Shown: piece after piece, positions 14,560-42,641 of the stretch | Numbering within the stretch: the first letter of the stretch is position 1 | Layout: each line of letters begins with the position of its first letter | Assembly: GCA_965200475.1 (NCBI GenBank) | Contig: CBDAUL010000007.1 | Span: 370,516 to 434,515 of the forward strand | Direction of reading: 5' to 3' | Source of the DNA: Vicinamibacterales bacterium | Lineage (GTDB): Bacteria > Acidobacteriota > Vicinamibacteria > Vicinamibacterales > UBA8438 | DNA: 64,000 nucleotides | The notes under the pieces: generated by a model | What the model was told of the DNA's origin: nothing | Databases searched by the model: none | The model's input: the letters and a program-made list of their open reading frames with translations, nothing else | Made by a program: the position numbers and the translations under genes

Positions 14560-14570
14560 AGCGGGGCGAA

Positions 14571-14613: not shown

Positions 14614-14628
14614 CCATCCGGAGGACGC

Positions 14629-21779: not shown

Positions 21780-24134
21780 ATGGATACGCGTTGGCTGACT
21801 GGCGGCGCGGCTGCGGCGGCGGTTCTGTGCCTGGCAGCGCCGGCGGCGGCTGCACCGGCCGCGTCGTCCGCGCGCGAGCTGCTGGACCGGTACTGCGTCC
21901 GCTGCCACAACGACCGGCTGCAGACTGCCGGGGTGGCGCTGGACGCCGCCGACGTCGAGCAGGTGGCCCACGACGCGGCGCTGTGGGAGCGGGCCATCCG
22001 CAAGCTGCGCGCCCGGGCCATGCCGCCGGCCGGGTCGCCCCGGCCCGACGAGGCCGCCTACGTCGACCTCGTCTCGTACCTGGAGGGCGAGCTCGACCGG
22101 CTGGCGCTGGCGGCGCCCGATCCCGGCCGCACCGACACCTTCCGGCGCCTCAACCGCACCGAGTATCGGAACGCGATCCGCGATCTGCTGGCCCTCGACG
22201 TCGACGTGACCGAGCTGCTGCCGCGCGACGACGCCAGCTATGGCTTCGACAACGTCGGCGCCGTCAACCTCTCGCCGGCGCTGCTGGAGCGCTATCTGTC
22301 GGCGGCGAGCAAGGTCAGCCGTCTGGCCGTCGGCAGCGCCGCGCCGGCGCCGGGCAGCCGCGTGGTCGTGCTGCCCGCGGATCTCACGCAGGAAGACCAC
22401 TTCGACGGGCTGCCGTTCGGCACGCGCGGCGGCACGGCCGTGAGCCACAACTTTCCGGCGGACGGCGAGTACGAGATCCAGGTCCGCCTGTCGCGCAACC
22501 GGAACGAGAACGTCGAGGGCCTGTACGACCCCCACGACCTCGAGATCACCCTGGACGGCGAGCGGCTGCAGGTGTTCGAGATCCGGCCGAACCGGATGGT
22601 GGTGGCCGGCTACTACGCCGACGCCGACATCGACAAGCATCTGCAGGTGCGGGTGACCGTCGGCGCGGGCCCGCACGAGGTGGGCGCCGCGTTCCTGAAG
22701 AAGAGCTCGGCGCTGGTCGAGACCGAGCGGCAGCCGTACGACGCCCACTTCAACATGGATCGCCACCCGCGCACGCAGCCCGGCGTGCGCTCGGTGGCCA
22801 TCGCGGGTCCGTTCGGCTCGGCGGGGGCGGGCGATACGCCCAGCCGCCGGCGCATCTTCGTCTGCCGTCCCGCGCGCGCGGCCGACGAGGCGGCGTGCGC
22901 CCGGACGATCATCGGCACGCTGGCGCGCCGCGCGTACCGCCGGCCCGTGAGCGACGCGGACCTGGCCGGGCCGCTGGCGTTCTACGCGCGCGGCCGCGCG
23001 CGCGGCGGGTTCGAGGACGGCATCGAGCTGGCGCTGCGGGCGCTGCTCACGAGCACGGAGTTCCTGTTCCGCATCGAGCAGGACCCCGCCGGGCTGCCCC
23101 CGGGCGCGCCCTACCGGCTGAGCGACGTCGAGCTGGCCTCACGGCTGTCGTTCTTTCTGTGGAGCAGCCTGCCGGACGACGAGCTGCTCGGCCTCGCCGA
23201 GCGCGGCGCGCTGGGCGACCCCGCGGTGCTCGACGCGCAGGTGACCCGCATGCTCGCCGATCCGCGCGCCCACTCGCTGGCGACCAACTTCGCCGGGCAG
23301 TGGCTGTACCTGCGCAACCTGGACGCGGCCAGGCCGAACCTGCGGCTGTACCCGGACTTCGACGACAACCTGCGGCGCGCGATGCGCCGCGAGACCGAGC
23401 TGCTGTTCGCAAGCATCGTCGAGGAGGATCGCGACGTCCTCGACCTGCTGCGCGCCGACTACACCTTCCTCAACGAGCGGCTCGCCCGGCACTACGACGT
23501 GCCGAACGTGTACGGCGACCACTTCCGGCGCGTGGCGCTGGGCCCCGACGGCCGGCGGGCTGGCCTGCTGGGCCACGGCAGCATCCTGACGGTCACGTCG
23601 TACGCGACCCGCACGTCGCCGGTGCTGCGCGGCAAGTGGGTGCTCGACAACATCCTGGGCATGCCGCCGCCGCCGCCGCCGCCCGACGTGCCGCCGCTCG
23701 ACGAGGGCGCGGCGGGCGGGGAGGCGCCGTCCATGCGCGAGCGGATGGCGCAGCACCGGCGGAACCCCGCGTGCGCCGCCTGCCACCAGTTGATGGACCC
23801 GGCCGGCCTCGCCATGGAGAACTTCGACGCGGTCGGCCGCTGGCGCGAGCGCGACGAGGGGTGGCGGGCCATCGACGCCGCGGGCAGCCTGCCGGGGAGC
23901 GCGGAGTTCGACGGGGTCGCCGGCCTGCGGCGGGTGCTGCTGGCGCGTCCCGACCTGTTCGTCCGGACGCTGGCGGAGAAGCTGCTGACGTTCGCGCTGG
24001 GGCGCGGCGTGGATCACGCCGACGCGCCGGCGGTGCGGCAGGTCCTGCGCGAGGCCGCCCGGGACGACAATCGCTTCTCGTCGCTCGTGCTGGCCATCGT
24101 CAAGAGTACGCCGTTCCAGATGCGGAGGTCGTGA
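21780..24134 (+). CDS. DUF1592/DUF1588/DUF1587/DUF1585/DUF1595 family protein with an N-terminal Planctomycete-type cytochrome c motif
   Basis: ATG at 21780 after GGAGGTGGG. Signal peptide, then LLDRYCVRCHNDRLQTAGVALD (CxxCH). Family-typical blocks FLWSSLPDDELL, NFAGQWLYLRNL, LRRAMRRETELLF, RGKWVLDNILG and a second CAACH. Confidence 0.85.
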   Translation: MDTRWLTGGAAAAAVLCLAAPAAAAPAASSARELLDRYCVRCHNDRLQTAGVALDAADVEQVAHDAALWERAIRKLRARAMPPAGSPRPDEAAYVDLVSYLEGELDRLALAAPDPGRTDTFRRLNRTEYRNAIRDLLALDVDVTELLPRDDASYGFDNVGAVNLSPALLERYLSAASKVSRLAVGSAAPAPGSRVVVLPADLTQEDHFDGLPFGTRGGTAVSHNFPADGEYEIQVRLSRNRNENVEGLYDPHDLEITLDGERLQVFEIRPNRMVVAGYYADADIDKHLQVRVTVGAGPHEVGAAFLKKSSALVETERQPYDAHFNMDRHPRTQPGVRSVAIAGPFGSAGAGDTPSRRRIFVCRPARAADEAACARTIIGTLARRAYRRPVSDADLAGPLAFYARGRARGGFEDGIELALRALLTSTEFLFRIEQDPAGLPPGAPYRLSDVELASRLSFFLWSSLPDDELLGLAERGALGDPAVLDAQVTRMLADPRAHSLATNFAGQWLYLRNLDAARPNLRLYPDFDDNLRRAMRRETELLFASIVEEDRDVLDLLRADYTFLNERLARHYDVPNVYGDHFRRVALGPDGRRAGLLGHGSILTVTSYATRTSPVLRGKWVLDNILGMPPPPPPPDVPPLDEGAAGGEAPSMRERMAQHRRNPACAACHQLMDPAGLAMENFDAVGRWRERDEGWRAIDAAGSLPGSAEFDGVAGLRRVLLARPDLFVRTLAEKLLTFALGRGVDHADAPAVRQVLREAARDDNRFSSLVLAIVKSTPFQMRRS

Positions 24135-25468
24135 TGATCCTTACGAAGATGGCGTTGCCGCGGCGGACGTTCCTGCGAGGCCTCGGTGCGGCGTTCGCGC
24201 TGCCGTTGCTCGATGCCATGGTGCCGGCGCTGAGCGCGGCGCCCCGGCCGGTCCGCCGCCTGGGCTACGTCTTCATCCCCATGGGGATGAACCCCGCGCC
24301 CTGGATTCCGGAGACCGACGGCCGTCTCACGGCGCTGTCCCCGTCGCTGGCGGCCCTGACGCCGCACCTCGACGACCTGACCGTCGTGACCAACCTGGAG
24401 ATCCGCAACGCCTACAGCGCCGGCAACCACGCGTCGTCGAACGCGGCGTTCCTGAGCTGCGTGCGCGGCAAGCGCACGGAAGGCAGCGACTACGAGCTGG
24501 GCACGACGGTGGACCAGATCGTGGCAAAGGCGGTGGGCGGCGAGACCGTGATCCCCTCGCTGGAGCTCGGCACCGACCTGATCGCGCAGGTGGGCAACTG
24601 CGACAACGGCTTTGCCTGCGTCTACATGAACTGCCTGTCGTGGTCGTCCCCGACGACGCCGCTGCCGCCGGAGGCCGATCCGCGCGCCGTGTTCGAGCGT
24701 CTGTTCGGCGACGGCGGCACGCCGCAGGAGCGGCAGGCCGAGCTGCGGGCCAACGCCAGCATTCTCGACTGGGTGCTCGGCGACATGGCCCGCCTCCGGT
24801 CGCGCCTCGGGGCCGGCGACCGCACCCGGGTCAGCAACTACCTGGACACGGTGCGCGAGGTGGAGCGCCGCATCCAGCGCGCCGAGCAGCATGCCGCCGC
24901 GTCGCCGCTCCCGGCGCTGGAGCGGCCGACCAGCGTCCCGGATGCGTGGGAGGAGCACGTCAAGCTGATGTTCGACCTGCAGGTGCTGGCGCTGCAGACC
25001 GACCTCACCCGGGTCATCACGTTCCAACTGGCCCGCGAGGCGAGCACCCGCACCTATCCCCAGATCGGCGTGCCCGAGCCGCACCATCCGGTGTCGCACC
25101 ACGTCAACGATCCCGAGAAGCTGACCAAGCTGGCGAAGATCAACGCCTATCACGTGTCGTTGTTCGCCTACCTCCTCGGGCGGCTGCGCGCCACCGAGGA
25201 CGGCGACGGGTCGCTGCTGGACCACACGACCTACCTGTACGGCAGCGGCATGGGGAACCCGAACGTGCACGACCACAGCAACCTGCCGATCGTGGTCGCG
25301 CGCGGCGGGGCGGGGGACTCGAAGGGCGGCTGGCACCTCCGCTACGCCGAGCCGACGCCGCTGGCCAACCTGCATCTGACGCTGCTCGACTACATGGGCG
25401 TGCACCTGGACAACTTCGTGGACAGCACCGGCCGGGCCGGCGCGGTCCTCGAGCCGCTGACGTTGTAG
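24134..25468 (+). CDS. DUF1552 family protein (Tat signal)
   Basis: MILTKMALPRRTFLRGLGAAFALPLLDAM. The start overlaps the upstream stop (TGATG). Blocks typical of DUF1552, the usual partner of DUF1592, are present (SLELG..., DRTRVSNYLDTVREVERRI, HHPVSHH, SLLDHTTYLYGSGMGNPNVHDHSNLP). Confidence 0.85.
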   Translation: MILTKMALPRRTFLRGLGAAFALPLLDAMVPALSAAPRPVRRLGYVFIPMGMNPAPWIPETDGRLTALSPSLAALTPHLDDLTVVTNLEIRNAYSAGNHASSNAAFLSCVRGKRTEGSDYELGTTVDQIVAKAVGGETVIPSLELGTDLIAQVGNCDNGFACVYMNCLSWSSPTTPLPPEADPRAVFERLFGDGGTPQERQAELRANASILDWVLGDMARLRSRLGAGDRTRVSNYLDTVREVERRIQRAEQHAAASPLPALERPTSVPDAWEEHVKLMFDLQVLALQTDLTRVITFQLAREASTRTYPQIGVPEPHHPVSHHVNDPEKLTKLAKINAYHVSLFAYLLGRLRATEDGDGSLLDHTTYLYGSGMGNPNVHDHSNLPIVVARGGAGDSKGGWHLRYAEPTPLANLHLTLLDYMGVHLDNFVDSTGRAGAVLEPLTL

Positions 25469-25487: not shown

Positions 25488-26972
25488 ATGAGGTGGAGGG
25501 TGCGGCTGATCGCGGCCGTAGCGCTGGCGCTGCTGGCCGGCGGCGGGTTGGACGCGGCGGTGGACGCGCGCCTGGTCGACGCCGTCAAGCGGGCCGACGA
25601 GACTGCCGTGCGCGCGTTGCTCGCGGAGCGGGTCGACCCCGACGCGCCCGCGACCGACGGCAGCACGCCGCTCCACTGGGCGGTGCACCGCGACCAGCTC
25701 GGCATCGCCGAGCTGCTGATCCGCGCCGGCGCGCGGCCCACGGCCGCCAACCGCTACGGGGTTCGTCCGCTGTCGCTGGCGTGCGTCAACGGCAACGCCG
25801 CCATGATCGAGCTGCTGCTCGACGCCGGGGCCGATCCGGACACGGTGCTGGCGGAGGGCGAGACCGCGCTGATGACGGCGGCGCGCACCGGGATCGTCGA
25901 GGCCGTCGAGCTGCTGCTGGCGCGCGGCGCCGACGTGAATGCCGCCGAGTCGTGGCGGGGACAGACGGCGCTGATGTGGGCGGCGGCGGAGGGCAACACG
26001 GAGGTCGTCGCGGCGCTGCTCGCCAGCGGCGCGGACGTTGGCGCCGCTTCGCAGAACGGCTTCACGCCGCTGCTGTTCGCCGCACGGGAGGGGCGGTTCG
26101 AGGTGGCCGATCTGCTGCTCGACGCGGGCGCGAGTCTGGACGATTCGCTGTCGATCAACGCCGACCGGACGGCGGGCGGCGTCGAGATGCGGCGGGCATC
26201 CAGCGAGGGTCTCGACGCCTTCCTGCTGGCGGTGGGGAGCGGGCACTTCGAGCTGGCGGCGCGGCTGCTGGAACGGGGGGCCGATCCCAACGCGGCGCCG
26301 CGCGGGTGGACCGCGCTGCACCAGGTGTCGTGGGTGCGCAAGACCGGGGACTCCGGCAGCAACGATCCCGCGCCCGAGGGCTCGGGCGACATGGACAGCC
26401 TCGAGTTCGTTCGCGTGCTGGCGGCGAAGGGCGCGGATCTGAACGCCCGCGTCACGCTGAAGCCGCCCGCCGGGATCACGGTGCTGAACATGATCGGCGG
26501 CACGCCGTTCCTGCTCGCAGCCCGCACCGCGGATGCCGCGCTGATGAGCCTGCTGGCCGAGCTGGGCGCCGATCCCCTGCTCGCGAACGAGGACAACACC
26601 ACGCCGCTGATGGTGGCCGCCGGCGTGGGCACCCAGTCGCCCGGGGAAGACCCCGGCACCGAGCCGGAGGTGCTCGAGGCCGTGAAGGTGGCGCTGGCGC
26701 TGGGCGGTGAGCTGGACGCCGTGGACGACAACGGCGAGACCGCCATGCACGGGGCCGCCTACAAGCACCTGCCCGGCGTGGTGACCTTCCTGGCCGACCA
26801 GGGCGCGCGGGTCGAGGTCTGGAATCGGGAGAACGCCAGGGGCTGGACCCCGTGGCGGATCGTGGCGGGCGTCCAGCGCGGAGCCAACATCGTCAGCTCG
26901 CCCGAGACGGAGGCGGCGGTGCGCGCCGTGATGGCGCGCGCCGGCGTCGCGCCGCCCGACCACCTGCCCTGA
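25488..26972 (+). CDS. Secreted ankyrin-repeat protein (about 10 repeats)
   Basis: Signal peptide, then repeated G.TPLH.A......ELLL..GADPN units (e.g. DGSTPLHWAVHRDQLGIAELLIRAGARP and GQTALMWAAAEGNTEVVAALLASGADV). Confidence 0.85.
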   Translation: MRWRVRLIAAVALALLAGGGLDAAVDARLVDAVKRADETAVRALLAERVDPDAPATDGSTPLHWAVHRDQLGIAELLIRAGARPTAANRYGVRPLSLACVNGNAAMIELLLDAGADPDTVLAEGETALMTAARTGIVEAVELLLARGADVNAAESWRGQTALMWAAAEGNTEVVAALLASGADVGAASQNGFTPLLFAAREGRFEVADLLLDAGASLDDSLSINADRTAGGVEMRRASSEGLDAFLLAVGSGHFELAARLLERGADPNAAPRGWTALHQVSWVRKTGDSGSNDPAPEGSGDMDSLEFVRVLAAKGADLNARVTLKPPAGITVLNMIGGTPFLLAARTADAALMSLLAELGADPLLANEDNTTPLMVAAGVGTQSPGEDPGTEPEVLEAVKVALALGGELDAVDDNGETAMHGAAYKHLPGVVTFLADQGARVEVWNRENARGWTPWRIVAGVQRGANIVSSPETEAAVRAVMARAGVAPPDHLP

Positions 26973-27008: not shown

Positions 27009-27764
27009 ATGCCGGCGCCGCGCATCCTCCTGATCTTCGCGCATCCGGACGACGAGAGCTTCATTGCCGGGGGGCTGGTCCGCCGTCATGCCGACCGGGG
27101 CGCCGAGACCGCGCTCGTGACGGCCACGCGCGGCGACGCTGGCCGCGTCGGAGAGCCGCCGCTGTGCCGCCGGGAGGAGCTGCCGGCGGTGCGCGAGGCC
27201 GAGTTGCGGCGGGCTGCGGACATCCTCGGCATCGCGGACGTGCACCTGCTCGACTATCGCGACAAGCACCTCGCGGAGGCGCCGGCCGCCGACATGCGCG
27301 AGGCGCTGGTGCGGCGCATCCGCGAGCACCGGCCGCACGTGGTGATCAGCTTCGATCCCGCCGGGATGAACGGCCATGCCGACCATGTGGCCATCGCGGG
27401 CTTCGCGGTCGATGCCGTCGCGGCGGCGGCCGATTCGCGCTGGTCCGGCGGGGCGGGCCGACCCTACCGCGTGCCGCGCCTGCTCTGGAACGCGCCGCTC
27501 CCGCCGTGGGAGGTGACGCGGCCGCGCAGCCTGGGCAGGGAGCCGGGCGTCGACTTCGTGATCGACGTTGCGGCGCAGCGGGCGGCGAAGGCGGCCGCGC
27601 TGCGGGCGCATCGCACGCAGCAGGTGCCCATCGACCGCTGCTTCTTCAGCAAGCCGGACGTCGATCGGATCCTGAGCGTCGAGGCGTTCAGGCAGGCGTG
27701 GGGTCCGGCTCTGCCGTGCGTCCCCGCGGACGACGTGCTGGCCGGCATCGATCTGTCGGAGTGA
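27009..27764 (+). CDS. PIG-L/LmbE family N-acetylglucosaminyl deacetylase
   Basis: ILLIFAHPDDESFIAGG (the AHPDDE zinc motif), GMNGHADHVAIA, and AALRAHRTQ. Confidence 0.85.
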   Translation: MPAPRILLIFAHPDDESFIAGGLVRRHADRGAETALVTATRGDAGRVGEPPLCRREELPAVREAELRRAADILGIADVHLLDYRDKHLAEAPAADMREALVRRIREHRPHVVISFDPAGMNGHADHVAIAGFAVDAVAAAADSRWSGGAGRPYRVPRLLWNAPLPPWEVTRPRSLGREPGVDFVIDVAAQRAAKAAALRAHRTQQVPIDRCFFSKPDVDRILSVEAFRQAWGPALPCVPADDVLAGIDLSE

Positions 27765-27991: not shown

Positions 27992-28942
27992 GTGAGGACA
28001 GGCCCGTGTGCCGTGCTGGCGGGCGGCCTGCTGGCGCTGGCCCCCGGATGGGCGGCGGCGCAGCCGGCGGAATCCGCGGACATGCCGCGCACATCCTGGG
28101 ACCGGCCCGACCTGGGCGGCGTGTGGGTCAACGGCAGCACCACGCCGCTGGAGCGTCCGGAATCGTTTGGCGATCGGGAATTCCTGAGGGCAGGCGAGGC
28201 AGAGGAGCTGCCGCGGCAGTTGTTCACGGACCGGCTCGGACCGCTCACCCCGCAGGAGCGTGCGCTGTCGGTCGAGGGCGGCCCGGCGCGGGCCGGGGGC
28301 GGGCCGCTGAGCCGGCGGACGTCGCTCGTCACGGGGCCGACCGGCAGGATCCCGCCGTTCACGCCGGCGGCGCAGGAGCGCCTGGCCGACGGCCTCAACC
28401 AGTTCATCACCGAGCGGGCCGACTCGCACGAGGACCGGGGCTACAGCGAGCGCTGCCTGCGCTTCGTCAGCGGCGGGCCGCCGATGATGGCGTTCGGGGT
28501 CGCGAACGTCCACCACATCTTCCAGACTCCGGACCTGGTCGCGTTCCTCCACGAGGAGGGCCACGTCGTGCGCATCATCCACCTCGACGCGCGGCCGCGC
28601 ATCGACGCCCGCATCAGGCTCTGGAGCGGCGACTCGCGGGGCCGCTGGGAGGGCGACACCCTGGTCGTCGAGACGACGAACTTCAACGGCATCGACGGGT
28701 TCCGGGGATCGGGCCCGGGACTGCACCTCATCGAGCGGCTGACCCGCGTCGACGACGAGACGATCCTGTACGAATTCACGGTCGATGACCCGGAGACGTG
28801 GACGGAGCCGTGGTCGGTCGAGATGCCCCTGCTGGTGTCGGCGGGGCGGCTCTACGAGCACGCGTGCCACGAAGGCAACTACAGCCTGGTGAACATTCTG
28901 CGCGGCGCCCGGGTGCAGGAGCGCGAGGCGGGGGCCCGCTGA
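27992..28942 (+). CDS. Secreted protein of an uncharacterised family with a C-terminal ACHEGNY motif (paralog 1 of 5)
   Basis: GTG at 27992 after GGAGGAGAGG. Signal peptide. Shared blocks WDRPDLGGVWVN..TTPLERP, TSLVTGPTGRIPP, IFQTPDLVA, ARIRLWSGDSRGRWEGDTLVVETTNF, LIERLTRVDD and LYEHACHEGNYSLVNILRGAR. Confidence 0.8.
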   Translation: MRTGPCAVLAGGLLALAPGWAAAQPAESADMPRTSWDRPDLGGVWVNGSTTPLERPESFGDREFLRAGEAEELPRQLFTDRLGPLTPQERALSVEGGPARAGGGPLSRRTSLVTGPTGRIPPFTPAAQERLADGLNQFITERADSHEDRGYSERCLRFVSGGPPMMAFGVANVHHIFQTPDLVAFLHEEGHVVRIIHLDARPRIDARIRLWSGDSRGRWEGDTLVVETTNFNGIDGFRGSGPGLHLIERLTRVDDETILYEFTVDDPETWTEPWSVEMPLLVSAGRLYEHACHEGNYSLVNILRGARVQEREAGAR

Positions 28943-28976
28943 AGCCTGGGCGGGGATTCGGACCACGGGAGGCGCG

Positions 28977-30767
28977 ATGGGGATTGGCGCGTGCATCCGC
29001 GCACGTGCGTCGCGCGTCGTGCTGCTCGCCGCGATGATCGCTTTCGCGGCCGCATGCGGGCAGCCGGAGGTCGGGACGGCGCCGCCGGTCGCCGCGCTCG
29101 ACCCGGACGTTCCCGTGACCGTCACGGGCGGCGAGGTGCGCGGCGCGGCCGCCGACGGCAACCCGGGCATCGTCGCGTTCCGGGGCGTGCCCTATGCCGC
29201 ACCCCCGGTCGGCGATCTCCGCTGGAGGCCGCCGCAACCGGTGGTCGCGTGGGACGGGGTCCGGGATGCCGCCGCGCCGGGCCCGATCTGCATGCAGACC
29301 GGCCCGGCCTGGGTGCGCGCGCCGGACGCGGGCGAGGATGACGCGGAGAGCGAGGATTGCCTCTTCCTCAACATCTGGGCGCCGCGGAAGAGCCGGGAGC
29401 CGCGCCCCGTGATGGTGTGGATCCATGGCGGCGGCTTCTTCAACGGCGCCGGGTCGCTCCCGATCTACGACGGCACCCGCATCGCGGAGCGCGGCGTCGT
29501 GCTCGTGAGCATCAACTACCGGCTCAACGTCTTCGGCTTCTTCGCGCATCCCGCCCTGTCCGCCGAATCGCCGCACGGCGCGTCGGGTAACTACGGTCTG
29601 ATGGACATGGTGGCCGCGCTCGAGTGGGTGCGGGACAACATCGAGACGTTCGGCGGCGACCCGCGGCGGGTCACGATATTCGGGGAATCGGCCGGCGGCG
29701 GCGCGGTGATGGCGCTGCTGCTGGTCCCGCAGTCCAGGGACCTGTTCCACCGCGCCATCTCCGAGAGCACGTGGGTGTACGGGTGGGACCGGGAGTTGCG
29801 CGAGGGTGCCGGCGATTCGGTCACGGCCGAAGCCCAGGGCCTGCAGATTGCCGACTGGCTCGGTGCGTCCGGTGCCTCGGCCCTGACCACGCTGCGCGCC
29901 GCGACGGCCCGCGAGGTGCAGGCGGCGGCCAACGCCGATGCAGGCAGCCTGCTCATGCGGACCGGGTACATCTGGGCGCCGAACGTGGACGGCTGGATGG
30001 TGCCGAGCGACCCGCTCGGCATGTATGACGCGGGGCTTCAGCACGACGTACCGCTGATCACGGGCATGAACGCCGACGAGGGCGTGTCGGTCGCCCGCCG
30101 CGCGAACGTGGAGGACCGCGAGGCGTTCGAAGCGCACGTGCGGACCGTCTACCCCGGCGTCGCGGACGAGCTGATCACCCACTACGGCGTCGACTCGCCG
30201 GAGGCGGCGAGGTCGCAGATGGCCCACCTGGTTCACGACATGTCGTTCGCGGGCCCGGTGCGCGTGCAGGCCGAGGCCCACGCGAAGGTCTCGGCGCCGG
30301 TCTGGCTGTACCACTTCACGCGCGTGCCGCCCACCGCCCTGGGCGCCGCCGTGGGAGGTGCCTACCACGGCGGCGAGCTCGTGTACGTGTTCGGCACGAT
30401 GGCCGCCGGGCCGGGGCCGCCGGGAGCACGTCCCCACCCGATGGCGGTCCACGGCGACTGGACCGGGACCGACCGGCAGCTCTCGCAGACCATGATCGCC
30501 TACTGGACGCAGTTCGCCGCCACCGGCAATCCGAATCGGGACGATCTGCCGCCGTGGCCGGCATTCGATCCGCCCGCCGCGATGCACCTCGACCTCGGCG
30601 AGACCGTGGTCGCCGGCCAAGGGTTGCACGAGGCGGCCGGCCGGTTGTTCAGGCGCTTCGCGGCGAGCCGCCGGGCCGGGACCTGGCCCGCAGGCCCCGC
30701 ATTGACCTCGGTCTCGCTGACGCATGCGGACCGAACTGGCTCAGCCCGAACTGGACCCGCCTGCTAA
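28977..30767 (+). CDS. Carboxylesterase type B, lipoprotein (second copy)
   Basis: Lipobox AFAAACGQ. Motifs FRGVPYAAPPVGDLRWRPP, EDCLFLNIW, FGESAGGG and GGAYHGGELVYVF. The ~35-aa C-terminal tail looks like read-through beyond the position where the paralog at 12931 ends. Confidence 0.85.
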   Translation: MGIGACIRARASRVVLLAAMIAFAAACGQPEVGTAPPVAALDPDVPVTVTGGEVRGAAADGNPGIVAFRGVPYAAPPVGDLRWRPPQPVVAWDGVRDAAAPGPICMQTGPAWVRAPDAGEDDAESEDCLFLNIWAPRKSREPRPVMVWIHGGGFFNGAGSLPIYDGTRIAERGVVLVSINYRLNVFGFFAHPALSAESPHGASGNYGLMDMVAALEWVRDNIETFGGDPRRVTIFGESAGGGAVMALLLVPQSRDLFHRAISESTWVYGWDRELREGAGDSVTAEAQGLQIADWLGASGASALTTLRAATAREVQAAANADAGSLLMRTGYIWAPNVDGWMVPSDPLGMYDAGLQHDVPLITGMNADEGVSVARRANVEDREAFEAHVRTVYPGVADELITHYGVDSPEAARSQMAHLVHDMSFAGPVRVQAEAHAKVSAPVWLYHFTRVPPTALGAAVGGAYHGGELVYVFGTMAAGPGPPGARPHPMAVHGDWTGTDRQLSQTMIAYWTQFAATGNPNRDDLPPWPAFDPPAAMHLDLGETVVAGQGLHEAAGRLFRRFAASRRAGTWPAGPALTSVSLTHADRTGSARTGPAC

Positions 30768-30837
30768 GCTGTGCCTAGCGTTGCGCGGCGCCGGACGGGT
30801 CCGGTGGATTTTGTCGGCGGCAGCGGCGCGGCGCGCA

Positions 30838-30880
30838 GGGGTCCCCGCAAGCGGACGCCGGGGGCTCGGGGCGCAGCCCC
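30838..30880. repeat. 43-nt repeat, copy 2
   Basis: GGGGTCCCCGCAAGCGGACGCCGGGGGCTCGGGGCGCAGCCCC, with one mismatch to 14571..14613. It lies between carboxylesterase 2 and the RBS of ACHEGNY paralog 2. Confidence 0.85.
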
Positions 30881-30901
30881 GTCTGAAGGAGGAGGAGTGC
30901 G

Positions 30902-31867
30902 ATGACACGTGCGATTGCAGCGTTGGCGGGTGTTCTGCTGGTGCTCGCGCCAGCCGCGGCGGCGGCGCAGGGCGACGGGGAGACGTGGCGGACCGCATGG
31001 GGCGACCCCGACCTGCAGGGTACGTGGACGAACACCACCACGACGCCGATGGAGCGTCCGAGCGAGTACGAGGGGCGGACGGCGCTGACCGACGAGGAGC
31101 GCGCCGAGCTGGACGCGCTGGCCGCGAGCCGCCGGGATCGCGAGCCGCCGCCCGGCAGCACCGGCGCGTACAACAGCTTCTGGGTCGAGAGCGGGCAACG
31201 CTCCAGCCAGACCTCGCTCGTGATCGATCCGCCCGACGGCCAGCTTCCCGCCCTGACCGACCGGGTGCGCGAGCGGGACGCCGCGGTGGCCGCGTCGCGC
31301 AACGCCGCGCCCGACTCGTACACCGACCTGAACCTCTACGATCGGTGCATCACGCGCGGCCTGCCGGGCGCGATGATTCCCGGCTTCTACAACCACAACT
31401 ACCAGATCTTCCAGACGCCCGACCACGTCGTGATCCTGGTCGAGATGATCCACGACGCACGCATCATCCCGCTGGACGGTCGGGCGCCCGCGCCCGGGGG
31501 CCTTGGCCAGTGGCTGGGCCATTCGCGCGCCCGCTGGGAGGGCGAGACCCTGGTGGTCGAGACCACCAGCTTCAGCCCCGGGGCAGACGAGCGGGCGGTC
31601 AGCGGGCGGCTGCACCTCGTGCTGGCCGCGGGCGAGCAGCTCCACCTCGTCGAGCGCTTCACGCGCGTGGACGCCGACACCATCGACTACCGGTTCACCG
31701 TCAACGACCCGCAGACGTACGCGCAGCCGTGGACGGCGTCCATCCCGATGAGCCGCATCGACGGGCCGCTGTTCGAGTACGCCTGCCACGAGGGCAACTA
31801 CGGCCTGGAAAACATCCTGCGCGGCGCGCGCAACCAGGAGCGGGCCGCCGCGGCGGGCGGGAGGTAG
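30902..31867 (+). CDS. ACHEGNY-motif secreted protein (paralog 2)
   Basis: ATG after GGAGGAGGAG. Blocks WGDPDLQGTWTNTTTTPMERP, TSLVIDPPDGQLP, IFQTPDHVVILVEMIHDARIIPLDG, RWEGETLVVETTSF and LFEYACHEGNYGLENILRGAR. Confidence 0.85.
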   Translation: MTRAIAALAGVLLVLAPAAAAAQGDGETWRTAWGDPDLQGTWTNTTTTPMERPSEYEGRTALTDEERAELDALAASRRDREPPPGSTGAYNSFWVESGQRSSQTSLVIDPPDGQLPALTDRVRERDAAVAASRNAAPDSYTDLNLYDRCITRGLPGAMIPGFYNHNYQIFQTPDHVVILVEMIHDARIIPLDGRAPAPGGLGQWLGHSRARWEGETLVVETTSFSPGADERAVSGRLHLVLAAGEQLHLVERFTRVDADTIDYRFTVNDPQTYAQPWTASIPMSRIDGPLFEYACHEGNYGLENILRGARNQERAAAAGGR

Positions 31868-31956
31868 GATCCCGCGCGGCACGCGGCGGTCGCCGGTGTA
31901 AACCCGGCGCGAACGCCGTGCGGGGCGGACCCTCTCGGTAGCTTGGAGACGTATCG

Positions 31957-32901
31957 ATGCGTCGCATCTCTCTTGTGCTGCTCGTCTTGTTCTGCCCGCT
32001 CCCGGGCGCGGCCCAGCCGCCGGAAGCGGTCGACATACCGCGCACGCCGTGGGGCCGGCCGGCCCTCACCGGTGTGTGGACCAACTCGAGCCTGACGCCG
32101 CTCGAACGCCCGGACGAGTACGGCGACCGGGAGCTCCACACGGCGGACGAGCTGGTCGAGCTGCAGCGGACCGCCGTCCAGCGGCGCATCGACGCGCTCC
32201 GCGGGCCGGAAGCCATCCTGGCCGTCGAGTTCAGCGAGATCTGGATGGAGCCGGGAGCGCTGAGCGGGCGGACCTCGCTGATCACGGGACCGACCGGGAA
32301 GATTCCGCCCTACACGCCCGAGGCGGAAGAACGGCTGGCCGACGGTCTCCGGCAGCCGATGACCCAGCGGGCCGACTCGCACGACGATCGGGGCTACAGC
32401 GAGCGCTGCCTGCGCTTCGTCACCGGCGGCCCGCCGATGATGGCGTTCCCGTTCGCCCCCCTGGTTCAGATCGTTCAGACCCCGGACCACGTGGTGATCC
32501 AGACCGAGGAGAACCACGAGACCCGGATCGTGCACCTCGACGATCGACCCCACGTGGACCCGCGGATACGGCTCTGGCGCGGCGACTCCCGGGGACGCTG
32601 GGAGGGCGACACCCTGGTGATCGAGACCACGAACTTCAACGGCACGGGCGGGTTCCGGAACTCCGGTCCCGAGCTGCACCTCACCGAACGTCTGACGCGG
32701 GTGGACGCCGACACCATCCTGTACGGCTTCACGGCTGACGATCCGGGGACCTGGACCGAGCCGTGGTCGGCCGAGATGCCGTTACGGGTGTCTCCGGCGC
32801 CGACCTACGAACACGCCTGCCACGAGGGCAACTACACCCTGCCGCTCGTCCTGAGCGGCGCCCGCGCGCAGGAGCGCCGGGCGGAGGAGGGGGCGAGGTA
32901 G
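31957..32901 (+). CDS. ACHEGNY-motif secreted protein (paralog 3)
   Basis: Blocks WGRPALTGVWTNSSLTPLERP, TSLITGPTGKIPP, IVQTPDHVVIQ, RWEGDTLVIETTNF and TYEHACHEGNYTLPLVLSGAR. Closest to paralog 1. Confidence 0.85.
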   Translation: MRRISLVLLVLFCPLPGAAQPPEAVDIPRTPWGRPALTGVWTNSSLTPLERPDEYGDRELHTADELVELQRTAVQRRIDALRGPEAILAVEFSEIWMEPGALSGRTSLITGPTGKIPPYTPEAEERLADGLRQPMTQRADSHDDRGYSERCLRFVTGGPPMMAFPFAPLVQIVQTPDHVVIQTEENHETRIVHLDDRPHVDPRIRLWRGDSRGRWEGDTLVIETTNFNGTGGFRNSGPELHLTERLTRVDADTILYGFTADDPGTWTEPWSAEMPLRVSPAPTYEHACHEGNYTLPLVLSGARAQERRAEEGAR

Positions 32902-33877
32902 TCGCCTGGACCGAGGCGGCGGTATCGACCCGGAATCCTCTGCTGCGCCACCCGGGCTTCGCTGCTCGGGACGCCCGGAAACGGCAACGTAATGTCCGTC
33001 AGCATCCAGGATGTGTCTGTGCTCCACCGCGTCGCGTTGCCCGGCCAGGCAGCCTGCCACGTGCGGCCGCGTGCGAGAACCGCTCGCCGCGAGGGCTTCG
33101 GCAGCGCCTGCCCGAGGGTGGCTTGCGATCTTTTTTCGCCCCGCATGCATTTTTCTGTTGACAGCCCGTTTCGAGGCCGGCGGCCCAGGATGCGGACTGA
33201 CGTGAGACATGCCGCTCGGACGACCCTGGCCGGCCGCTGGGGGGGCTGCCGGCGTCCGGGAAGACAACGCAGCCGCACCGCGGCCCGATCGGTCCGCCTG
33301 AGGCCGTACAAGCCGTTGAAAAACAGGGGGTTATGATGGAGTCATGGTGCGTCGTGACGATGCGGACGGGAAGCCGCCCGTATCACGCTGTTCTTCTCCA
33401 GCGGGTGCAAGTCCCGTCTCGGTAAGCGCCGGAGCGCCGAGTAGCAGACCCCAGGCACGGCCGGAGACGGCCGTGGCCCGAGCGGGGTGTCAAGAGCCTC
33501 TTCGGAGGGAGCAAGTCCGCGGGCCGCAACATGAAGTGAAGCCTGCAGCCTCGACACATCTACAGTCCGAGAGCCGAGCCGCTCATGTCACGGCGAAGGC
33601 CATGTCTCCCGCGCCCCGGTCCGGCGGCGCACGTGCGGGAGGTCTCGGCGGGGTAGGGGGCGCAGCACGCGGACACGGAGGGGGACGGAACACGAGAGGC
33701 CCGTCTGCGCGGCCCGGGTCGGGGCAACGCGGTCCGCATAAGCCGAAGGTGAAAGCGGGCACGGCGCAGCGGGAGTCCGAGGGGGCCATAGTACCGGTGA
33801 GGGCCGTGCAGCAGAACGCGGCCGGAGGGAAGGGCCCCTGCGGTGGGCACGGCGTTGGCGCGAGGACGCGCGAGGGC

Positions 33878-34676
33878 ATGATCGGCGAGACCGGACCCAA
33901 CTCCCCCGAGAGGCGTGCGCCTCTCGACAAAGTGCGCCAATTGCAACGACGCCTGTGGGCCGCGGCCAAGCGGTCCCCGGAACGGCGCTTCCACGCCCTG
34001 ATGGACCGGATTTGGAGGGATGACGTCCTCTGGGAGGCGTGGCGGCGGGTGCAGCGGAATCGTGGCTCTGCCGGGGTCGACAGGGAGACACTGGCGGAGA
34101 TTGAGCAGCGCGGTGTCGACGCGTTCCTCGCGGAACTCGGCGCGGCGCGACGGGCGGGGACGTATCGGCCGCAGCCGGTCCTGCGGCACTACATCCCCAA
34201 GGCCGATGGCCGACGGCGACCGCTCGGGATACCGACGGTCCGCGACCGGGTGGCGCAGATGGCCGCGACGCTGGTGTTGAGCCCCATCTTCGAGGCGGAC
34301 TTCCGGTCCTCGTCGTACGGGTTTCGACCGAAGCGGAGCGCGACGCAGGCGCTGGAGTTCCTTCGCGTCCGCGGGGCGCGTGGGGGCAACCACGTGCTGG
34401 ACGCAGACATCTGCGACTACTTCAGCCGCATCGACCGAACGAAGCTGCTGACGCTGGTTCGCCAGCGCGTTTCGGACCGGCGTGTCCTTCGGCTGCTGCG
34501 GATGTGGCTCGCGGCGGGGGTGATGGAGGAGGGGCAGGTGCATCGCACCCTGGCGGGGACTCCGCAGGGGGGTGTCATCTCGCCGCTGCTGTCGAACATC
34601 TACCTGCACGTGCTCGACCGGGTCTGGGAGGACCGGTGGGCGCACCTCGGTACGCTGGTGCGTTACGCGGACGACT
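33878..34676 (+). CDS. Outer-intron reverse transcriptase/maturase, 5' portion (RT domains 0-5, ending at YADD)
   Basis: [46 protein letters not shown]...[10 protein letters not shown]...[17 protein letters not shown]...[10 protein letters not shown]...[21 protein letters not shown]...LVRYADD. RT similarity ends abruptly after codon D at 34675. Confidence 0.8.
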
Positions 34677-35141
34677 GTGCGCCACGAAGGCGCAGAAAGG
34701 AGGCCGCGATGGCCGCCTAGCTGCAGCCATGCTGCACGAGGGATGAGGGCAGGCCCCTCGGAGCCGCCCGGCAGGGGGAGGCTCCAAACCGCCGTGCGCT
34801 GCCTCGGTCAAGAGCCGAGGTGGTAAGCGTCACGGAAACGGCGCGGCGCGACCGCGTCAGGTAGGGTGCAGGGAGACGAAGTGAATGAACCACCGGCAAC
34901 GTGTCGAAAGCGTAGGGACGGTGTCGAAACCGGGGCGAGTCGTTAACCCGGGACAGGTCCAGCGGGAGCCTGCAGCTTGGCTGGTCGGCACCCGGCATAA
35001 AGGTGGCGTGACCCTGCACCAGGCCCTTGTGTGGAACGTGGGAACCTGTCGCCTCGATGTGAAGGGAGAAATCCAAGGGGCCGACCCCCGAGGATGAGAA
35101 GCCCGATGCGAGGCACAGGGGCGGAGCGACCCGTACGAGCG

Positions 35142-36476
35142 ATGAAGTCGAGGAAACTCGATGGAGCAAAGGGGTCGCGTCATCCAGTGTGTCCTGACGG
35201 TCAACCGCGCGGGCGGGAGGAGCCGTCGAGCCACGCGAAGCCGTTTCGTATTTCCAAGTGGGTGGTTTGGGAGGCCTACACTCGAGTCAAGGCGAACCAC
35301 GGAGCAGCTGGTGTCGACGCCGAATCTGTCGAGATGTTCGAGCAGGACCTGAAGAACAATCTCTACCGGATTTGGAATCGGATGTCGTCGGGCACGTACT
35401 TCCCGCCTCCGGTCCGTTCGGTTGGAATACCGAAGAAGGACGGAAGCGAGCGCCGCTTGGGCGTACCCACTGTCGCCGACAGAATTGCCCAAACGGTGGT
35501 CAAGATGTACCTGGAACCGGAGGTAGAGCCGCAGTTCCACCCCGATTCGTATGGGTACCGCCCGCGGAAGTCAGCGGTCGACGCACTCACGGCAACCCGG
35601 CAGCGATGCTGGCGTTACGACTGGGTGATCGACCTTGACGTCCGCGGCTTCTTCGACAACCTGGACCACTCGCTCGTCATGCGAGCGGTCAGGAAGTACA
35701 CACGGTGCCAGTGGATTCTGCTCTATGTGCAGCGGTGGCTGACCGCTCCCATGCAGCAGGACGACGGAACCCTGGTGCCGCGCACGACGGGGACGCCCCA
35801 AGGGGGCGTCGCGAGCCCACTCCTGGCCAACATCTTCCTGCACCTCGCGTTCGACGACTGGATGCGGACCACGCACCCGGACGTTCCGTTCGAGAGGTAC
35901 GCGGACGATATCGTCGCGCACTGTCGGACGGAGGCGCAGGCGCAGCAGGTCCTGTCGCACATCCAACGTCGTCTGGCGCAATGCCGGCTGGAGGTGCATC
36001 CGGAGAAGACGCGTATCGTCTACTGCAAGGATGACGACCGGCCGGGGCAGTATCCCACGGAGCAGTTCACCTTCTTGGGCTACACGTTTCGTTCACGTCG
36101 GGCGAAGAATCGATGGGGTCGGTACTTCATCAGCTTCATCCCGGCGGTGAGCAATGCGGCGGCGACGCGGATGCGGCAGACGATGCGGCGTTGGCACCTC
36201 CCTCGGCGCAGCGACAAGGCCATCGACGACTTGGCCCGCATGTGGAATCCGGTCCTTCGCGGCTGGATTCAGTACTACGGCCGCTTCTACAAGTCGGCCC
36301 TGTATTCGGTCTTTCGCCACCTCAACGGTCTGTTGGTTCGATGGGCCATGCGGAAATACAAGAGGCTCCGGCGCCATCGCCGCCGCGCCACACATTGGCT
36401 CGGGGGTCTTGCGCGTCGCGAGCCCCGGCTGTTCGCCCACTGGCATCTGCTGGGGCTGACGCCGGCGGCTGGATGA
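35142..36476 (+). CDS. Inner-intron reverse transcriptase/maturase (RT + X domain, no endonuclease domain)
   Basis: ...WEAYTRVKANHGAAGVDAESV...ERRLGVPTVADRIAQTVV...YGYRPRKSAVDA...GTPQGGVASPLLANIFLH...ERYADDIVAHC...EVHPEKTRIVYC...FTFLGYTF...LRGWIQYYGRFYKS. The start could also lie upstream, since the track ORF begins at 35031. Confidence 0.88.
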   Translation: MKSRKLDGAKGSRHPVCPDGQPRGREEPSSHAKPFRISKWVVWEAYTRVKANHGAAGVDAESVEMFEQDLKNNLYRIWNRMSSGTYFPPPVRSVGIPKKDGSERRLGVPTVADRIAQTVVKMYLEPEVEPQFHPDSYGYRPRKSAVDALTATRQRCWRYDWVIDLDVRGFFDNLDHSLVMRAVRKYTRCQWILLYVQRWLTAPMQQDDGTLVPRTTGTPQGGVASPLLANIFLHLAFDDWMRTTHPDVPFERYADDIVAHCRTEAQAQQVLSHIQRRLAQCRLEVHPEKTRIVYCKDDDRPGQYPTEQFTFLGYTFRSRRAKNRWGRYFISFIPAVSNAAATRMRQTMRRWHLPRRSDKAIDDLARMWNPVLRGWIQYYGRFYKSALYSVFRHLNGLLVRWAMRKYKRLRRHRRRATHWLGGLARREPRLFAHWHLLGLTPAAG

Positions 36477-36479
36477 TGG

Positions 36480-36513
36480 GAGCTGTATGAGCGGAGACGT
36501 TCACGTACAGTTC
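36480..36513 (+). ncRNA. Group II intron domain V (inner intron)
   Basis: GAGCTGTATGAGCGGAGACGTTCACGTACAGTTC. This is a 34-nt hairpin with the AGC catalytic triad, a 2-nt CG bulge on the 3' strand and a GAGA (GNRA) tetraloop. Confidence 0.85.
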
Positions 36514-36553
36514 TGCGAGCGCCCGGGGGTGCGATTCCCCCGGGCGACTCACC

Positions 36554-37101
36554 TCGTGGTGATGTGCAACACGAAGGCGGCGCGAGAGCGGGTGGGCCTG
36601 GTGCTCGCCCGGCTCGGGCTGGAGCTGCATCCGGAGAAGACGCGGGTGGTCGACCTGACGGACGGTCGTGAGGGCTTCGACTTCCTGGGGTGTCATCTGC
36701 ACAAGCGCCTGAGCGGACCCATCTGGGCCCGCCAGCGGCAACGGGTGTATTTCCTGCACCGTTGGCCGTCTCGGCATGCGATGCAGCAGGTGCGCGCCCG
36801 CGTGCGGGCGCTCACCCCGAGGGGCCGTTGCCACACGGACCTGCGTCTGGTCATCGCGGATGTGAACCGGGTGCTTCGCGGGTGGGGGCAGTATTTCCGG
36901 ACGGGGAATGCGGCGACCCACTTCGTGCAGCTCGACCAGTACGTGGAACGGCGCCTGCGCGGCTTGCTCCTCAAGCGCGCGGGGTCGCGTCTGGCGGCTG
37001 GTCGGGCGCAAGCCTGGAAACGTTCGTTCTTCGAGGCCTTGGGGCTCGTCCGCCTGCGCGGCACGATTCGGTATCCGGGGGTGGTGCATGCTGCGACCTG
37101 A
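36554..37101 (+). CDS. Outer-intron reverse transcriptase/maturase, 3' portion (RT domains 6-7 + X)
   Basis: (F)VVMCNTKAARERVGLVLARLGLELHPEKTRVVDLTDGREGFDFLGCHL...VNRVLRGWGQYFRTGNAA... continues exactly where the 5' portion stops. The track ORF 36487..37101 begins inside inner-intron domain V, so its first 22 codons are not IEP sequence. Confidence 0.8.
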
Positions 37102-37113
37102 AGTCCACCTGGA

Positions 37114-37147
37114 AAGCCGTGTGCGGGAAATCCGCATGCACGGTTTG
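37114..37147 (+). ncRNA. Group II intron domain V (outer intron)
   Basis: AAGCCGTGTGCGGGAAATCCGCATGCACGGTTTG. A 34-nt hairpin with the AGC triad, a 2-nt bulge and a GAAA-type loop, 13 nt after the IEP stop. Confidence 0.8.
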
Positions 37148-37207
37148 AACGGGGGTCTTGCTCTCAGCCGGTCGGTTGTCTCGACCGACGCCAAGTAGGA
37201 TCTACCA

Positions 37208-39139: not shown

Positions 39140-39537
39140 GCGCCTCGCACTGCCTGTCGCGCTGTCGACCGCTCCGTCAGCCGGTCCGGGCCTTGTCTGC
39201 GCCCGGGTCGCCTGCCGGTGACGGCGGGCGGAGCCGTTCCGCCATGCCCTACCTGAGGGTGGCCCATGCCGGTTCGGCAGGCGTCGCGGAGTGCTTCGCG
39301 GATGCGGCTCGCACCGCAGGCGCTGGCGCCGAGGTAGTGGCCGACGCCGCTCTCGTCGAGCGTGGGGGTCGCGCCGGGCTGCGACGCCACCTGCCGGGAG
39401 CGGCGCCCGGTTCTGGACCCGCTCGATCCGAGTGCGGCTGGTAGCGGACCCATGCAAATCACCAGACTCCGTGCGAAGGACCAGATCACCCTGCCAGTCA
39501 GCGACCATCATCGCGTGGCTATGGGCGCGGACGGTGA

Positions 39538-39858
39538 AGAGTCCCAACCCGGCCCTTCGCCGACGTGGACGTGCCGCTCGTGTCGACGTTCATGCTGTCG
39601 ACGAAGAAAGGCAAGGAGGCTTACGTCGAGCCGGTGATCGAGGGACGGAGGTATCGGTTCGAGGTGAAGGTCGGTGCGCCGCCGAACAGTGCGGCGACCA
39701 AGCTTGGTACAACAGCAGGTAAGCGAAGCGCGTTCCGATGCCTGATGTCCGGCGTGCCTGTGACGTATGACCATGTTCGGACCAGTGGACAGCGAGGAAT
39801 GATGGGTGCACGGTTGATGGCGTTTGTGGCGGCGGGCGACCGTGGTCGCATTTACCTG
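39538..39858 (+). pseudogene. Internal fragment of a DUF1156-type DNA methylase (defence-locus remnant)
   Basis: ...[39 protein letters not shown]...[47 protein letters not shown] matches my recollection of the mid-region of DUF1156 proteins. There is no start codon, no N-terminal domain and no C-terminal remainder. Local GC content is lower. Confidence 0.5.
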
Positions 39859-39924
39859 ATCCTCGACGTCGTCCGGGTCCAGCTCGGGCGCGGTGAGCGC
39901 CATGGCAGGGGAGTGCTGGGCGCC

Positions 39925-40408: not shown

Positions 40409-40476
40409 GCCCGCAGCGGGCCGCCCGCCGGGCCGCACCGCCGACTGCGAGGGCGCAGTCGGCGGCCGCCCGCGGC

Positions 40477-42564: not shown

Positions 42565-42641
42565 CTCCCGTTGCCGCCTGAGCGGCGGCCGGCGGCGCTA
42601 TAATGCCTGTTCCGGCTCGATTCCGCACGAGGGGGGACCTG

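Follow-up and report, generated by a model that had tools for sequence, protein, structure and literature searches.

Five genes on the plus strand of a 64,000-nucleotide stretch of DNA from a Vicinamibacterales bacterium (referred to here, at its full length, as the window; G+C content, about 72%) encode paralogous proteins, denoted par1 to par5, of a single family that is undescribed in the profile libraries and literature searched. The family is marked by an E-x-A-C-H-E-G-N motif, conserved at 95–100% over 149 representatives with a mutual identity below 50%, and its predicted structures weakly resemble calycin-type barrels. The reading that we tentatively favor, as a possibility that stops short of being probable, is that these proteins are periplasmic barrels of this type which bind a small amphipathic molecule, or act on it by acid/base chemistry, with the specificity residing in a variable insert.

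The genes were delimited by translation of the open reading frames (ORFs), by alignment and by a profile hidden Markov model (HMM). The par1 gene (316 residues) spans positions 27992–28942, with an N-terminal motif at 28088–28126, the first Cys, within the sequence E-R-C, at 28454–28456 and the A-C-H-E-G-N-Y motif at 28862–28882. In par2 (321 residues; 30902–31867), the same landmarks are found at 30989–31027, 31346–31348 (Cys149) and 31781–31801. The par3 gene (314 residues; 31957–32901) starts 90 nucleotides 3' of par2 and carries the A-C-H-E-G-N-Y motif at 32815–32835, which in par4 (349 residues; 43325–44374) and par5 (350 residues; 50446–51498) lies at 44306–44326 and 51406–51426, respectively.

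All five ORFs are intact, and par2 to par5 are 43–63% identical to par1. The five-way alignment contains 71 invariant columns, covering the N-terminal R-T-x-W-G-x-P-D-L-x-G-x-W motif and the T-P-[LM]-E-R-P, T-S-[LI], Q-T-P and A-R-I blocks; further shared blocks are R-W-E-G-[DE]-T-L-V-[VI]-E-T, E-R-[LF]-T-R, A-C-H-E-G-N-Y and L-x-G-A-R. Applied to all six reading frames of the window, the HMM built from the five proteins recovered precisely five matches, with E values from 1e-154 to 1e-159, which excludes a chance resemblance, and nothing else below E = 0.9 that could represent a sixth copy. The ORFs, the alignment and the HMM thus agree with the initial annotation of this DNA, which had described five paralogs of secreted type (314–350 residues) sharing ordered blocks and the A-C-H-E-G-N-Y motif. 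Read by eye, the N-terminus of each protein is basic and continues into a hydrophobic stretch, with small residues before a Gln or Pro, the segment ending in A-x-A/Q; from this we infer a Sec signal peptide on each of the five, with export predicted. The GTG start of par1 at 27992 is backed by the 316-residue orthologues P0006, P0008 and P0016 (90–91% identical), and an alternative public gene call (P0003, 393 residues) begins the gene 231 nucleotides further upstream; the length of par5 is that of the public protein P0002 (350 residues). At an identity of 55% or more, the 274 homologues yield a separate orthologue group for each window paralog (12 to 43 members per group), indicating that the five are old paralogs and not the outcome of a recent burst.

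A large family without a profile or a name

A Pfam scan of the five proteins at E ≤ 1 returned only two noise matches (about 11 bits), an NCBIfam scan at the same threshold returned no match, and PDB sequence searches with the 5- and 122-sequence profiles matched no chain. The precomputed Pfam assignment was blank for all 240 listed homologues, and the names given to homologues by NCBI, UniRef and JGI read "hypothetical protein" throughout. The earlier view that the proteins cannot be assigned to any characterised family is therefore maintained. Literature searches for the motif string, for sponge Acidobacteria, and for DUF6152 and DUF1552 plus DUF1592, encoded near family genes (see below), yielded nothing relevant; the hypothetical proteins treated in a paper on XoxF clusters (PMC10875860) are different ones and smaller.

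A word-indexed search gave at least 8,000 homologue matches, and an exhaustive profile search, covering 1.84 billion representatives clustered at 50% identity, gave 28,396 clusters at E ≤ 1e-3, 16,486 at E ≤ 1e-10 and 3,477 at E ≤ 1e-30. Matches in genomes fall mainly within the Acidobacteriota (Vicinamibacterales and Bryobacterales), and further ones within the Gemmatimonadota (Gemmatimonadales and Longimicrobiales), the marine Gammaproteobacteria (OM182) and a large Phenylobacterium/Caulobacteraceae clade. Among the 149 representatives mentioned above (residue numbers are those of par2), C149 and E292 are found in all 149, R148, C295 and E297 in 148, N299 in 147 and H296 in 142, and about 30 residues, largely charged, are invariant in the family. 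The possibility, raised in the initial annotation, that the CHEGNY residues are not conserved beyond this genome was checked in this way, and the motif is kept across the diverse set. Fusions of homologues with a Lipocalin_5 domain (P0195), with a terpenoid-cyclase-like repeat domain (P0130) and, as a weak match, with PCMT were also encountered; these were dropped as a functional clue, as they are heterogeneous, and the UbiD and glyoxalase fusions may stem from crude gene calls.

The cysteine pair and the His-Glu-Asn motif

Exactly two Cys residues are present in the mature region of 255 of the 272 homologues and of each of the five window proteins. The two positions, both invariant, belong to the E-R-C sequence of the insert and to A-C-H-E-G-N, after the last strand. 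Most simply, the two Cys would be joined in a single disulfide, by which the motif loop is tied to the insert. The single invariant partner Cys and the two-Cys pattern make it probable that the motif Cys is structural and non-catalytic, a redox-active Cys pair being nonetheless conceivable. A Cys-His-Glu cluster forming a metal or catalytic site, as suggested in the initial annotation, is thus unlikely as stated, in view of this disulfide pattern and of the presence of only one invariant His. The C-x-x-C-H haem motif is absent, since the sequence reads E-[YF]-A-C-H, with a Glu (149/149) at the position of the first Cys. The ligand set of cupredoxins (a Cys, two His and a Met) was not found in the alignments of 61, 122 and 149 sequences, which contain one near-invariant His, H296.

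A sister subfamily, denoted B (the proteins considered so far constituting subfamily A), allows the requirements of the fold to be set apart from those of function. Its members are diverged, about 260 residues long and without a Pfam or NCBIfam match. They keep the N-terminal motif, as P-R-T-x-D-G-x-P-D-L-N-G-I-W, the Cys pair, the barrel strands and their residues, and a V-V-E-R-Y-T sequence; in twelve sequences inspected by eye, both Glu residues are kept in about half. However, V-E-F-A replaces H-E-G-N, so that the His, the Gly and the Asn are lost, and the C-terminal end reads L-E-F-K-C-V-E-F instead of Y-E-Y-A-C-H-E-G-N. Because subfamily B keeps the fold residues and loses both H296 and N299, these two residues would be specific to the function of subfamily A and not to the fold.

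A predicted barrel of the calycin type

Two AlphaFold2 models were obtained, one of full-length par2 from the 61-sequence alignment (predicted local distance difference test, pLDDT, 78.7; predicted template modelling score, pTM, 0.76) and one of mature par1 from the 122-sequence alignment (pLDDT 77.8; pTM 0.79). Both follow a common plan in which the signal helix precedes a short first strand bearing G-x-W, and this is followed by an insert of about 110 residues, eight more strands and a long C-terminal helix (300–319 in the par2 model, 270–292 in the par1 model). The insert, placed between the first strand and the remainder of the barrel, is variable, partly helical and partly predicted at low confidence. 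In par2, G40-x-W42 is located on a predicted strand (40–43) and corresponds to the first-strand motif of lipocalins; among the 149 representatives, the Gly is found in 143 and the Trp in 126, with Tyr or Phe at the Trp position in a further 18.

The models were compared with the PDB by means of Foldseek, and the top 50 matches were considered for each. The par2 model retrieved SAHS, UnaG, streptavidin, NanoLuc and CRABP, all of them weakly, with E values of at least 2e-3. The par1 model gave 23 matches with E < 1e-3, all to CRABP-II (best E = 2.5e-4; template modelling (TM) scores of 0.41–0.51, normalised to the target, over about 115 aligned columns), and SAHS, FABP and CRBP appeared just above that threshold. 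The top matches of both models were calycin-type barrels only, and weak, and the models weakly suggest a calycin-type (FABP/lipocalin-like) barrel, as an assignment to a fold class rather than membership of a family. Variation is concentrated in the insert and in one loop, the barrel and the motifs being conserved, which makes a diversification of substrates among the paralogs plausible.

A proposed function and its precedents

The function tentatively put forward at the outset can be worded as follows. Each of the five genes would give rise to a periplasmic protein of the family, exported by the Sec system, in which the N-terminal G-x-W strand and the C-terminal 150 or so residues would build an antiparallel barrel, with the long helix after it, and the insert would occupy the position of the helix-turn-helix portal of FABPs. 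The disulfide would staple the His-Glu-x-Asn loop to the insert, and this loop, together with the invariant residues R187, R209, E181, Q171, E251 and E292 of the barrel strands (par2 numbering), would create a fixed polar site at which the ligand's polar head is bound or acted upon, the hydrophobic part being taken up by the barrel and the insert. The protein could serve to carry its ligand or could be a cofactor-less acid/base enzyme, and the number of invariant residues fits the second option better. Since the insert is the main difference among them, the paralogs would probably differ in their ligand. The setting envisaged is that of periplasmic islands of anchorless pyrroloquinoline quinone (PQQ) dehydrogenases of the glucose/quinate type, carboxylesterases, lactonases, an epoxide hydrolase and SnoaL-like proteins. 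The proposal is in line with the extracytoplasmic role in the processing of hydrophobic compounds anticipated in the initial annotation: the proteins look exported, and the predicted fold class would fit small hydrophobic or amphipathic compounds.

The intracellular lipid-binding proteins (iLBPs; CRABP-II, FABPs and CRBP) are the best, and the only consistent, structural matches to the two predicted models. As predicted for the family, an extra element is inserted after the first strand of an antiparallel barrel. In iLBPs, buried Arg residues hold the carboxylate of the ligand, and the family too has invariant Arg residues on its predicted barrel strands. However, no sequence relationship links them (none of the five proteins matches the FABP/iLBP profile PF00061), and the TM scores of 0.41–0.51 are all that the family reaches. 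FABPs and their relatives are cytosolic, ten-stranded and about 130 residues long, whereas the window proteins are more than twice that length, apparently exported, and have the 110-residue insert in place of a short helix-turn-helix, the long C-terminal helix, the Cys pair and the invariant residues that include E-x-A-C-H-E-G-N. The second precedent is provided by the lipocalins (Blc, prostaglandin D synthase, violaxanthin de-epoxidase), which share with the family the G-x-W of the first strand and the succession of barrel and C-terminal helix predicted for it. Lipocalins are secreted, a disulfide ties their C-terminal part to the body of the protein, and lipocalin-fold enzymes demonstrate that a calycin barrel may work as a cofactor-less enzyme on hydrophobic substrates. 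Even so, there is no Pfam lipocalin match, lipocalins are not among the top Foldseek matches, remote homology to Lipocalin_5 was rejected after hhalign gave a probability of 0.3% for that domain, and the catalytic residues of lipocalin-fold enzymes have no alignable counterpart in the family.

Several considerations weigh against our proposal. The fold matches are weak, with TM scores near 0.45 and E values between about 1e-4 and 1e-3, and neither the Pfam scan nor hhalign found a sequence link to lipocalin or FABP families. Where the motif lies with respect to the mouth of the barrel is assumed. In the par2 model, pLDDT falls below 50 at the E-R-C and A-C-H-E-G-N-Y loops, the lowest values of the model, and in the par1 model it is 55–59 at the motif loop; such low values at invariant loops could signal an absent cofactor or partner, and not a simple ligand site. 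The invariant and largely charged residues, about 30 in number, would be unusual in a carrier of hydrophobic ligands. Finally, in a survey of 79 loci other than the window, a PQQ dehydrogenase adjoins 12 of 130 family genes and 53 of 691 other genes of the same loci, taken as a control (p = 0.59), and the contexts in Alphaproteobacteria are uninformative on function.

Genomic neighbourhoods and alternative readings

Of the 79 loci, 37 contain between two and four full copies in a stretch of about 20 kb. By clustering of neighbouring ORFs, a PQQ dehydrogenase was detected within 10 kb in 36 of the 79 loci, and these enzymes amount to 45 of the 617 called genes. A Pfam census of 104 immediate flanking genes yielded DUF6152 (11), PQQ (10), ankyrin (5), alpha/beta hydrolase (5), SGL lactonase (4), NHL (3), metallo-beta-lactamase (3) and cytochrome c (3), the flanking genes being mostly exported hydrolases and oxidoreductases. 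Esterase, SnoaL_4, PQQ dehydrogenase and lactonase neighbours recur around homologues in other phyla, which lends support to the emphasis laid earlier on such surroundings. The in-locus control nevertheless reduced the link with PQQ dehydrogenases, and a coupling at the level of operons was rejected: as these enzymes are dense in the loci yet adjacent to family genes no more often than to others, the link is regional, to islands of periplasmic enzymes, and not operonic.

DUF6152 (PF19649) is encoded in 20 of the 79 loci, from Acidobacteriota, Gemmatimonadales and Longimicrobiales; with few exceptions, its gene lies beside a family gene, most often as the third of a B-A-DUF6152 series on one strand. 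The predicted mature DUF6152 protein begins with H-H-[AS]-F-x-A-E-F-D, and its His-His N-terminus is a candidate metal site. In three loci, two genes for DUF6644 membrane proteins follow the module on the other strand. The module, which may have a PQQ dehydrogenase gene in front, runs on one strand in L080 (7114–13164) and in L079, L073, L054, L060, L016 and others; the window has no such module. Two gammaproteobacterial loci deserve mention: in one (L049, OM182), DUF1592, DUF1552, PQQ and family genes follow each other on one strand, and in the other, an esterase gene precedes the family gene, with two PQQ dehydrogenase genes, a SnoaL_4 gene, a polyketide-cyclase-like gene and a cupin gene nearby; the families involved are those encountered in the window. 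The DUF1592-DUF1552-ankyrin arrangement recurs beside family genes in Acidobacteriota, and the order DUF1552-ankyrin-family gene occurs twice in L039.

The window contains two PQQ dehydrogenase genes (1857–3797 and 14632–16614, both on the minus strand). Their products best match the glucose/quinate/shikimate family TIGR03074, from position 147 of the model onward, and they thus lack the N-terminal membrane anchor of that family; their electron acceptor is not obvious. A reading as lanthanide-type PQQ enzymes, based on a W-D-Y-D motif, was dropped in favor of that best match; E. coli mGDH carries the same D-x-D. Most PQQ dehydrogenases near family genes carry no CxxCH.

These findings bear on the most serious alternative, namely a binding site for a metal, haem, PQQ or a quinone at the His-Glu-Asn loop, whether or not the Cys pair is redox-active; this we regard as unlikely. 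On the same doubtful footing, the protein would serve the anchorless PQQ dehydrogenases as an electron acceptor, a quinone shuttle or a cofactor chaperone, in the company of subfamily B and DUF6152 where these are present. Such a role would account for the density of PQQ dehydrogenases in the loci, for their need of an external acceptor, which follows from their being anchorless and mostly devoid of CxxCH, and for the low pLDDT located exactly at the invariant loops of the par2 model; the recurrent B-A-DUF6152 order, the candidate metal-binding start of mature DUF6152, the DUF6644 genes after the module and the gammaproteobacterial DUF1592-DUF1552-PQQ-family gene operon also speak for it. However, a single His is invariant, CxxCH and a cupredoxin-like ligand set are lacking, the Cys pair is most simply a disulfide, and the signal peptides are mostly not of the twin-arginine type. 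Furthermore, family genes adjoin PQQ dehydrogenase genes no more often than the rest of the genes in the loci do, the DUF1592 proteins encoded in the same loci have a cytochrome-c-like domain of their own that might be the acceptor, and neither DUF6152 nor subfamily B was found in the window. The established partners in PQQ-dehydrogenase regions (XoxJ/MxaJ, cytochrome cL/c550 and the "PQQ-dependent catabolism-associated" proteins) are periplasmic and found in such regions, as, by prediction, are the family proteins, but the latter have no NCBIfam match at E ≤ 1, belong to a different predicted fold class, and their link is regional instead of operonic.

An extended version of this idea, which we hold to be rather improbable, is that A, B and DUF6152 together constitute a periplasmic hetero-oligomeric metallo- or cofactor module serving the anchorless PQQ dehydrogenases, from which stand-alone A proteins would be diversified derivatives. 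It is no less speculative to assign, within such a module, the active or cofactor site to the loop of A, the part of a non-catalytic partner to B and a metal site to the His-His of DUF6152. The activities that the assembly might then have (electron acceptor, quinone shuttle or cofactor loader) are, by the same token, improbable.

Quite improbable in our estimation is a non-enzymatic barrel that binds proteins, either as a periplasmic inhibitor of a hydrolase or as an obligate homo- or hetero-oligomeric scaffold, with the invariant surface as a protein interface. Some calycins are protease inhibitors. The many invariant charged residues, the tandem arrays of 37 of the 79 loci, the conserved B-A gene pairs and the frequent hydrolase neighbours would suit this explanation, as would a natural A-A tandem fusion, but no recurrent single hydrolase partner was found among the heterogeneous neighbours, and the interfaces of inhibitors usually evolve fast, whereas the motif is near-invariant across phyla. 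The fusion in question, the public metagenome protein P0001 (611 residues), joins two family-A domains head to tail, both with C-H-E-G-N and the second without a signal peptide, and suggests that family members may act as dimers.

Least probable of all, and indeed very unlikely, is a carrier of envelope lipids, isoprenoids or lipoproteins to the outer membrane, with a function like that of LolA, LptA or YceI: the barrel fold has a precedent for hydrophobic ligands, and OMP_b-brl and DUF5916 neighbours occur in the window and in two related genomes, L081 and L082 (of 123 family genes, 7 have DUF5916 at a distance of up to 1.5 kb), but LolA ranks only 30th in the Foldseek list of the par2 model (probability 0.21), YceI-type structures are in neither list of 50, no Pfam match to the LolA, LptA or YceI families was obtained, and dozens of diverged paralogs are hard to square with a housekeeping carrier. 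The remaining probability is assigned to explanations not yet thought of.

Organisation of the window

The array that contains the five genes starts, on the plus strand unless stated otherwise, with genes for a DUF1592-type PSD/PSCyt protein with a weak cytochrome c signal (21933–24134), a DUF1552/HXXSHH protein (24131–25468), an ankyrin-repeat protein (25488–26972) and a PIG-L deacetylase (27009–27764), as assigned by Pfam. It continues with par1, a carboxylesterase (COesterase; 28977–30767), par2 and par3, a segment of mobile DNA, and genes for a molybdopterin oxidoreductase and an outer-membrane protein, both on the minus strand. Then come an exported protein with a LON substrate-binding (N-terminal) domain (42603–43328; PF02190, E = 5.6e-36), par4, an epoxide hydrolase (44454–45734), DUF5916 (45741–48107), an unknown ORF (48108–48629), three SnoaL_4 genes (48652–49149 and 49192–49692 on the plus strand, 49759–50241 on the minus strand) and par5, directly 3' of which lies a HipA-like toxin kinase gene (HipA_C, Couple_hipA; 51519–52871, minus strand). 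The initial annotation had the paralogs interleaved with esterases, an epoxide hydrolase, SnoaL-like proteins and PQQ dehydrogenases; the first three kinds of neighbour are confirmed, but the PQQ dehydrogenase genes stand outside the array, 11–26 kb upstream of par1.

In L081 and L082, the orthologues of par1 (90% identical in one genome, 81% in the other) are found in the same gene order, including the DUF1592-DUF1552-ankyrin-PIG-L series upstream of them and the epoxide hydrolase-DUF5916 pair. The carboxylesterase gene between par1 and par2 is absent from L082 and fragmented in L081, where a DAO gene has been added; being missing or broken in both syntenic genomes, the esterase is a variable neighbour and not a fixed partner. 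This, together with the separate orthologue groups at 55% identity or more, argues against regarding the five genes as one system, as had been done. In contrast, the start of par4 overlaps the stop of the LON-domain gene by 4 nucleotides in all three genomes, and the two genes appear, from this overlap, to be translationally coupled; a signal-like N-terminus is visible in the translation of the LON-domain protein, for which a periplasmic location is predicted. Both the LON-domain/par4 pair and the tandem array are therefore conserved among the three close relatives compared.

Near-identical DNA, in particular to the region 27992–32901, is present in public runs of several marine sponge metagenomes and metatranscriptomes, and the DNA probably stems from a sponge-associated, Vicinamibacterales-like acidobacterium. 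RNA contigs from the sponge metatranscriptomes cover par genes, par2 among them; one (31781–32418) crosses the par2-par3 spacer and another (42629–43473) the LON-domain/par4 junction, and over the carboxylesterase gene RNA depth is about 0–2, compared to a DNA depth of 27–37. High expression of par1 and par2 was considered and rejected, as the peaks of RNA depth recur in the study's own DNA runs and thus represent collapsed multi-copy words. Short contigs over conserved parts of par2 have some 30–60 times the DNA depth of the flanks, a sign of many near-identical copies in the community.

The segment from par3 to the molybdopterin oxidoreductase gene (32902–40479) is absent from both L081 and L082 and thus represents an insertion of mobile DNA. 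It contains, 3' of par3, two nested group II introns (33344–37191). The outer one (domains D1–D4 at 33399–33534, domain V/VI at 37112–37191) has its reverse transcriptase (RT) ORF split into 33344–34720 and 36487–37101; the inner one (D1–D4 at 34745–34862, domain V/VI at 36478–36553) holds an intact RT/maturase ORF (35031–36476). The inner intron has about 15 times the DNA depth of its flanks, and an RNA contig joins 34676 to 36554, reflecting either splicing or a copy that lacks the inner intron. The insertion also carries a DUF222/HNH endonuclease gene (37208–39139), with raised DNA depth in the HNH region, and an unassigned ORF (39565–40338).

Upstream of the array, a linalool dehydratase/isomerase-like gene (11135–12898) and a second carboxylesterase gene (13126–14556) cluster with the PQQ dehydrogenase gene at 14632–16614 (minus strand), and the composition of this 11135–16614 cluster hints at a periplasmic metabolism of terpenoid alcohols. 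A gene for a sigma-54 activator (16928–18715) comes after it. A 430-residue ORF (20358–21650) with a C-Q-T-C-H haem-c motif has no Pfam or NCBIfam match and recurs in 8 of the fetched loci.

Significance

What makes the family worth attention is chiefly its size, its invariance and the B-A-DUF6152 module; the predicted fold class is known, and the kinds of function proposed have precedents. The family ranks among the larger ones without a profile, a name or a structure, and is present in multiple copies in abundant Acidobacteriota of soil, sediment and sponges. The near-invariance of residues across phyla suggests a single, fixed chemistry, and the variable insert and the old paralog lineages suggest many specificities. 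If its members are enzymes or carriers for hydrophobic or amphipathic compounds, they would fill a gap in the periplasmic processing of substrates by these poorly cultured bacteria, alongside the numerous PQQ dehydrogenases and esterases that they possess; if they bind a cofactor, they could be the missing partner of the anchorless PQQ dehydrogenases. In either case, the assignment of a function would annotate tens of thousands of genes.

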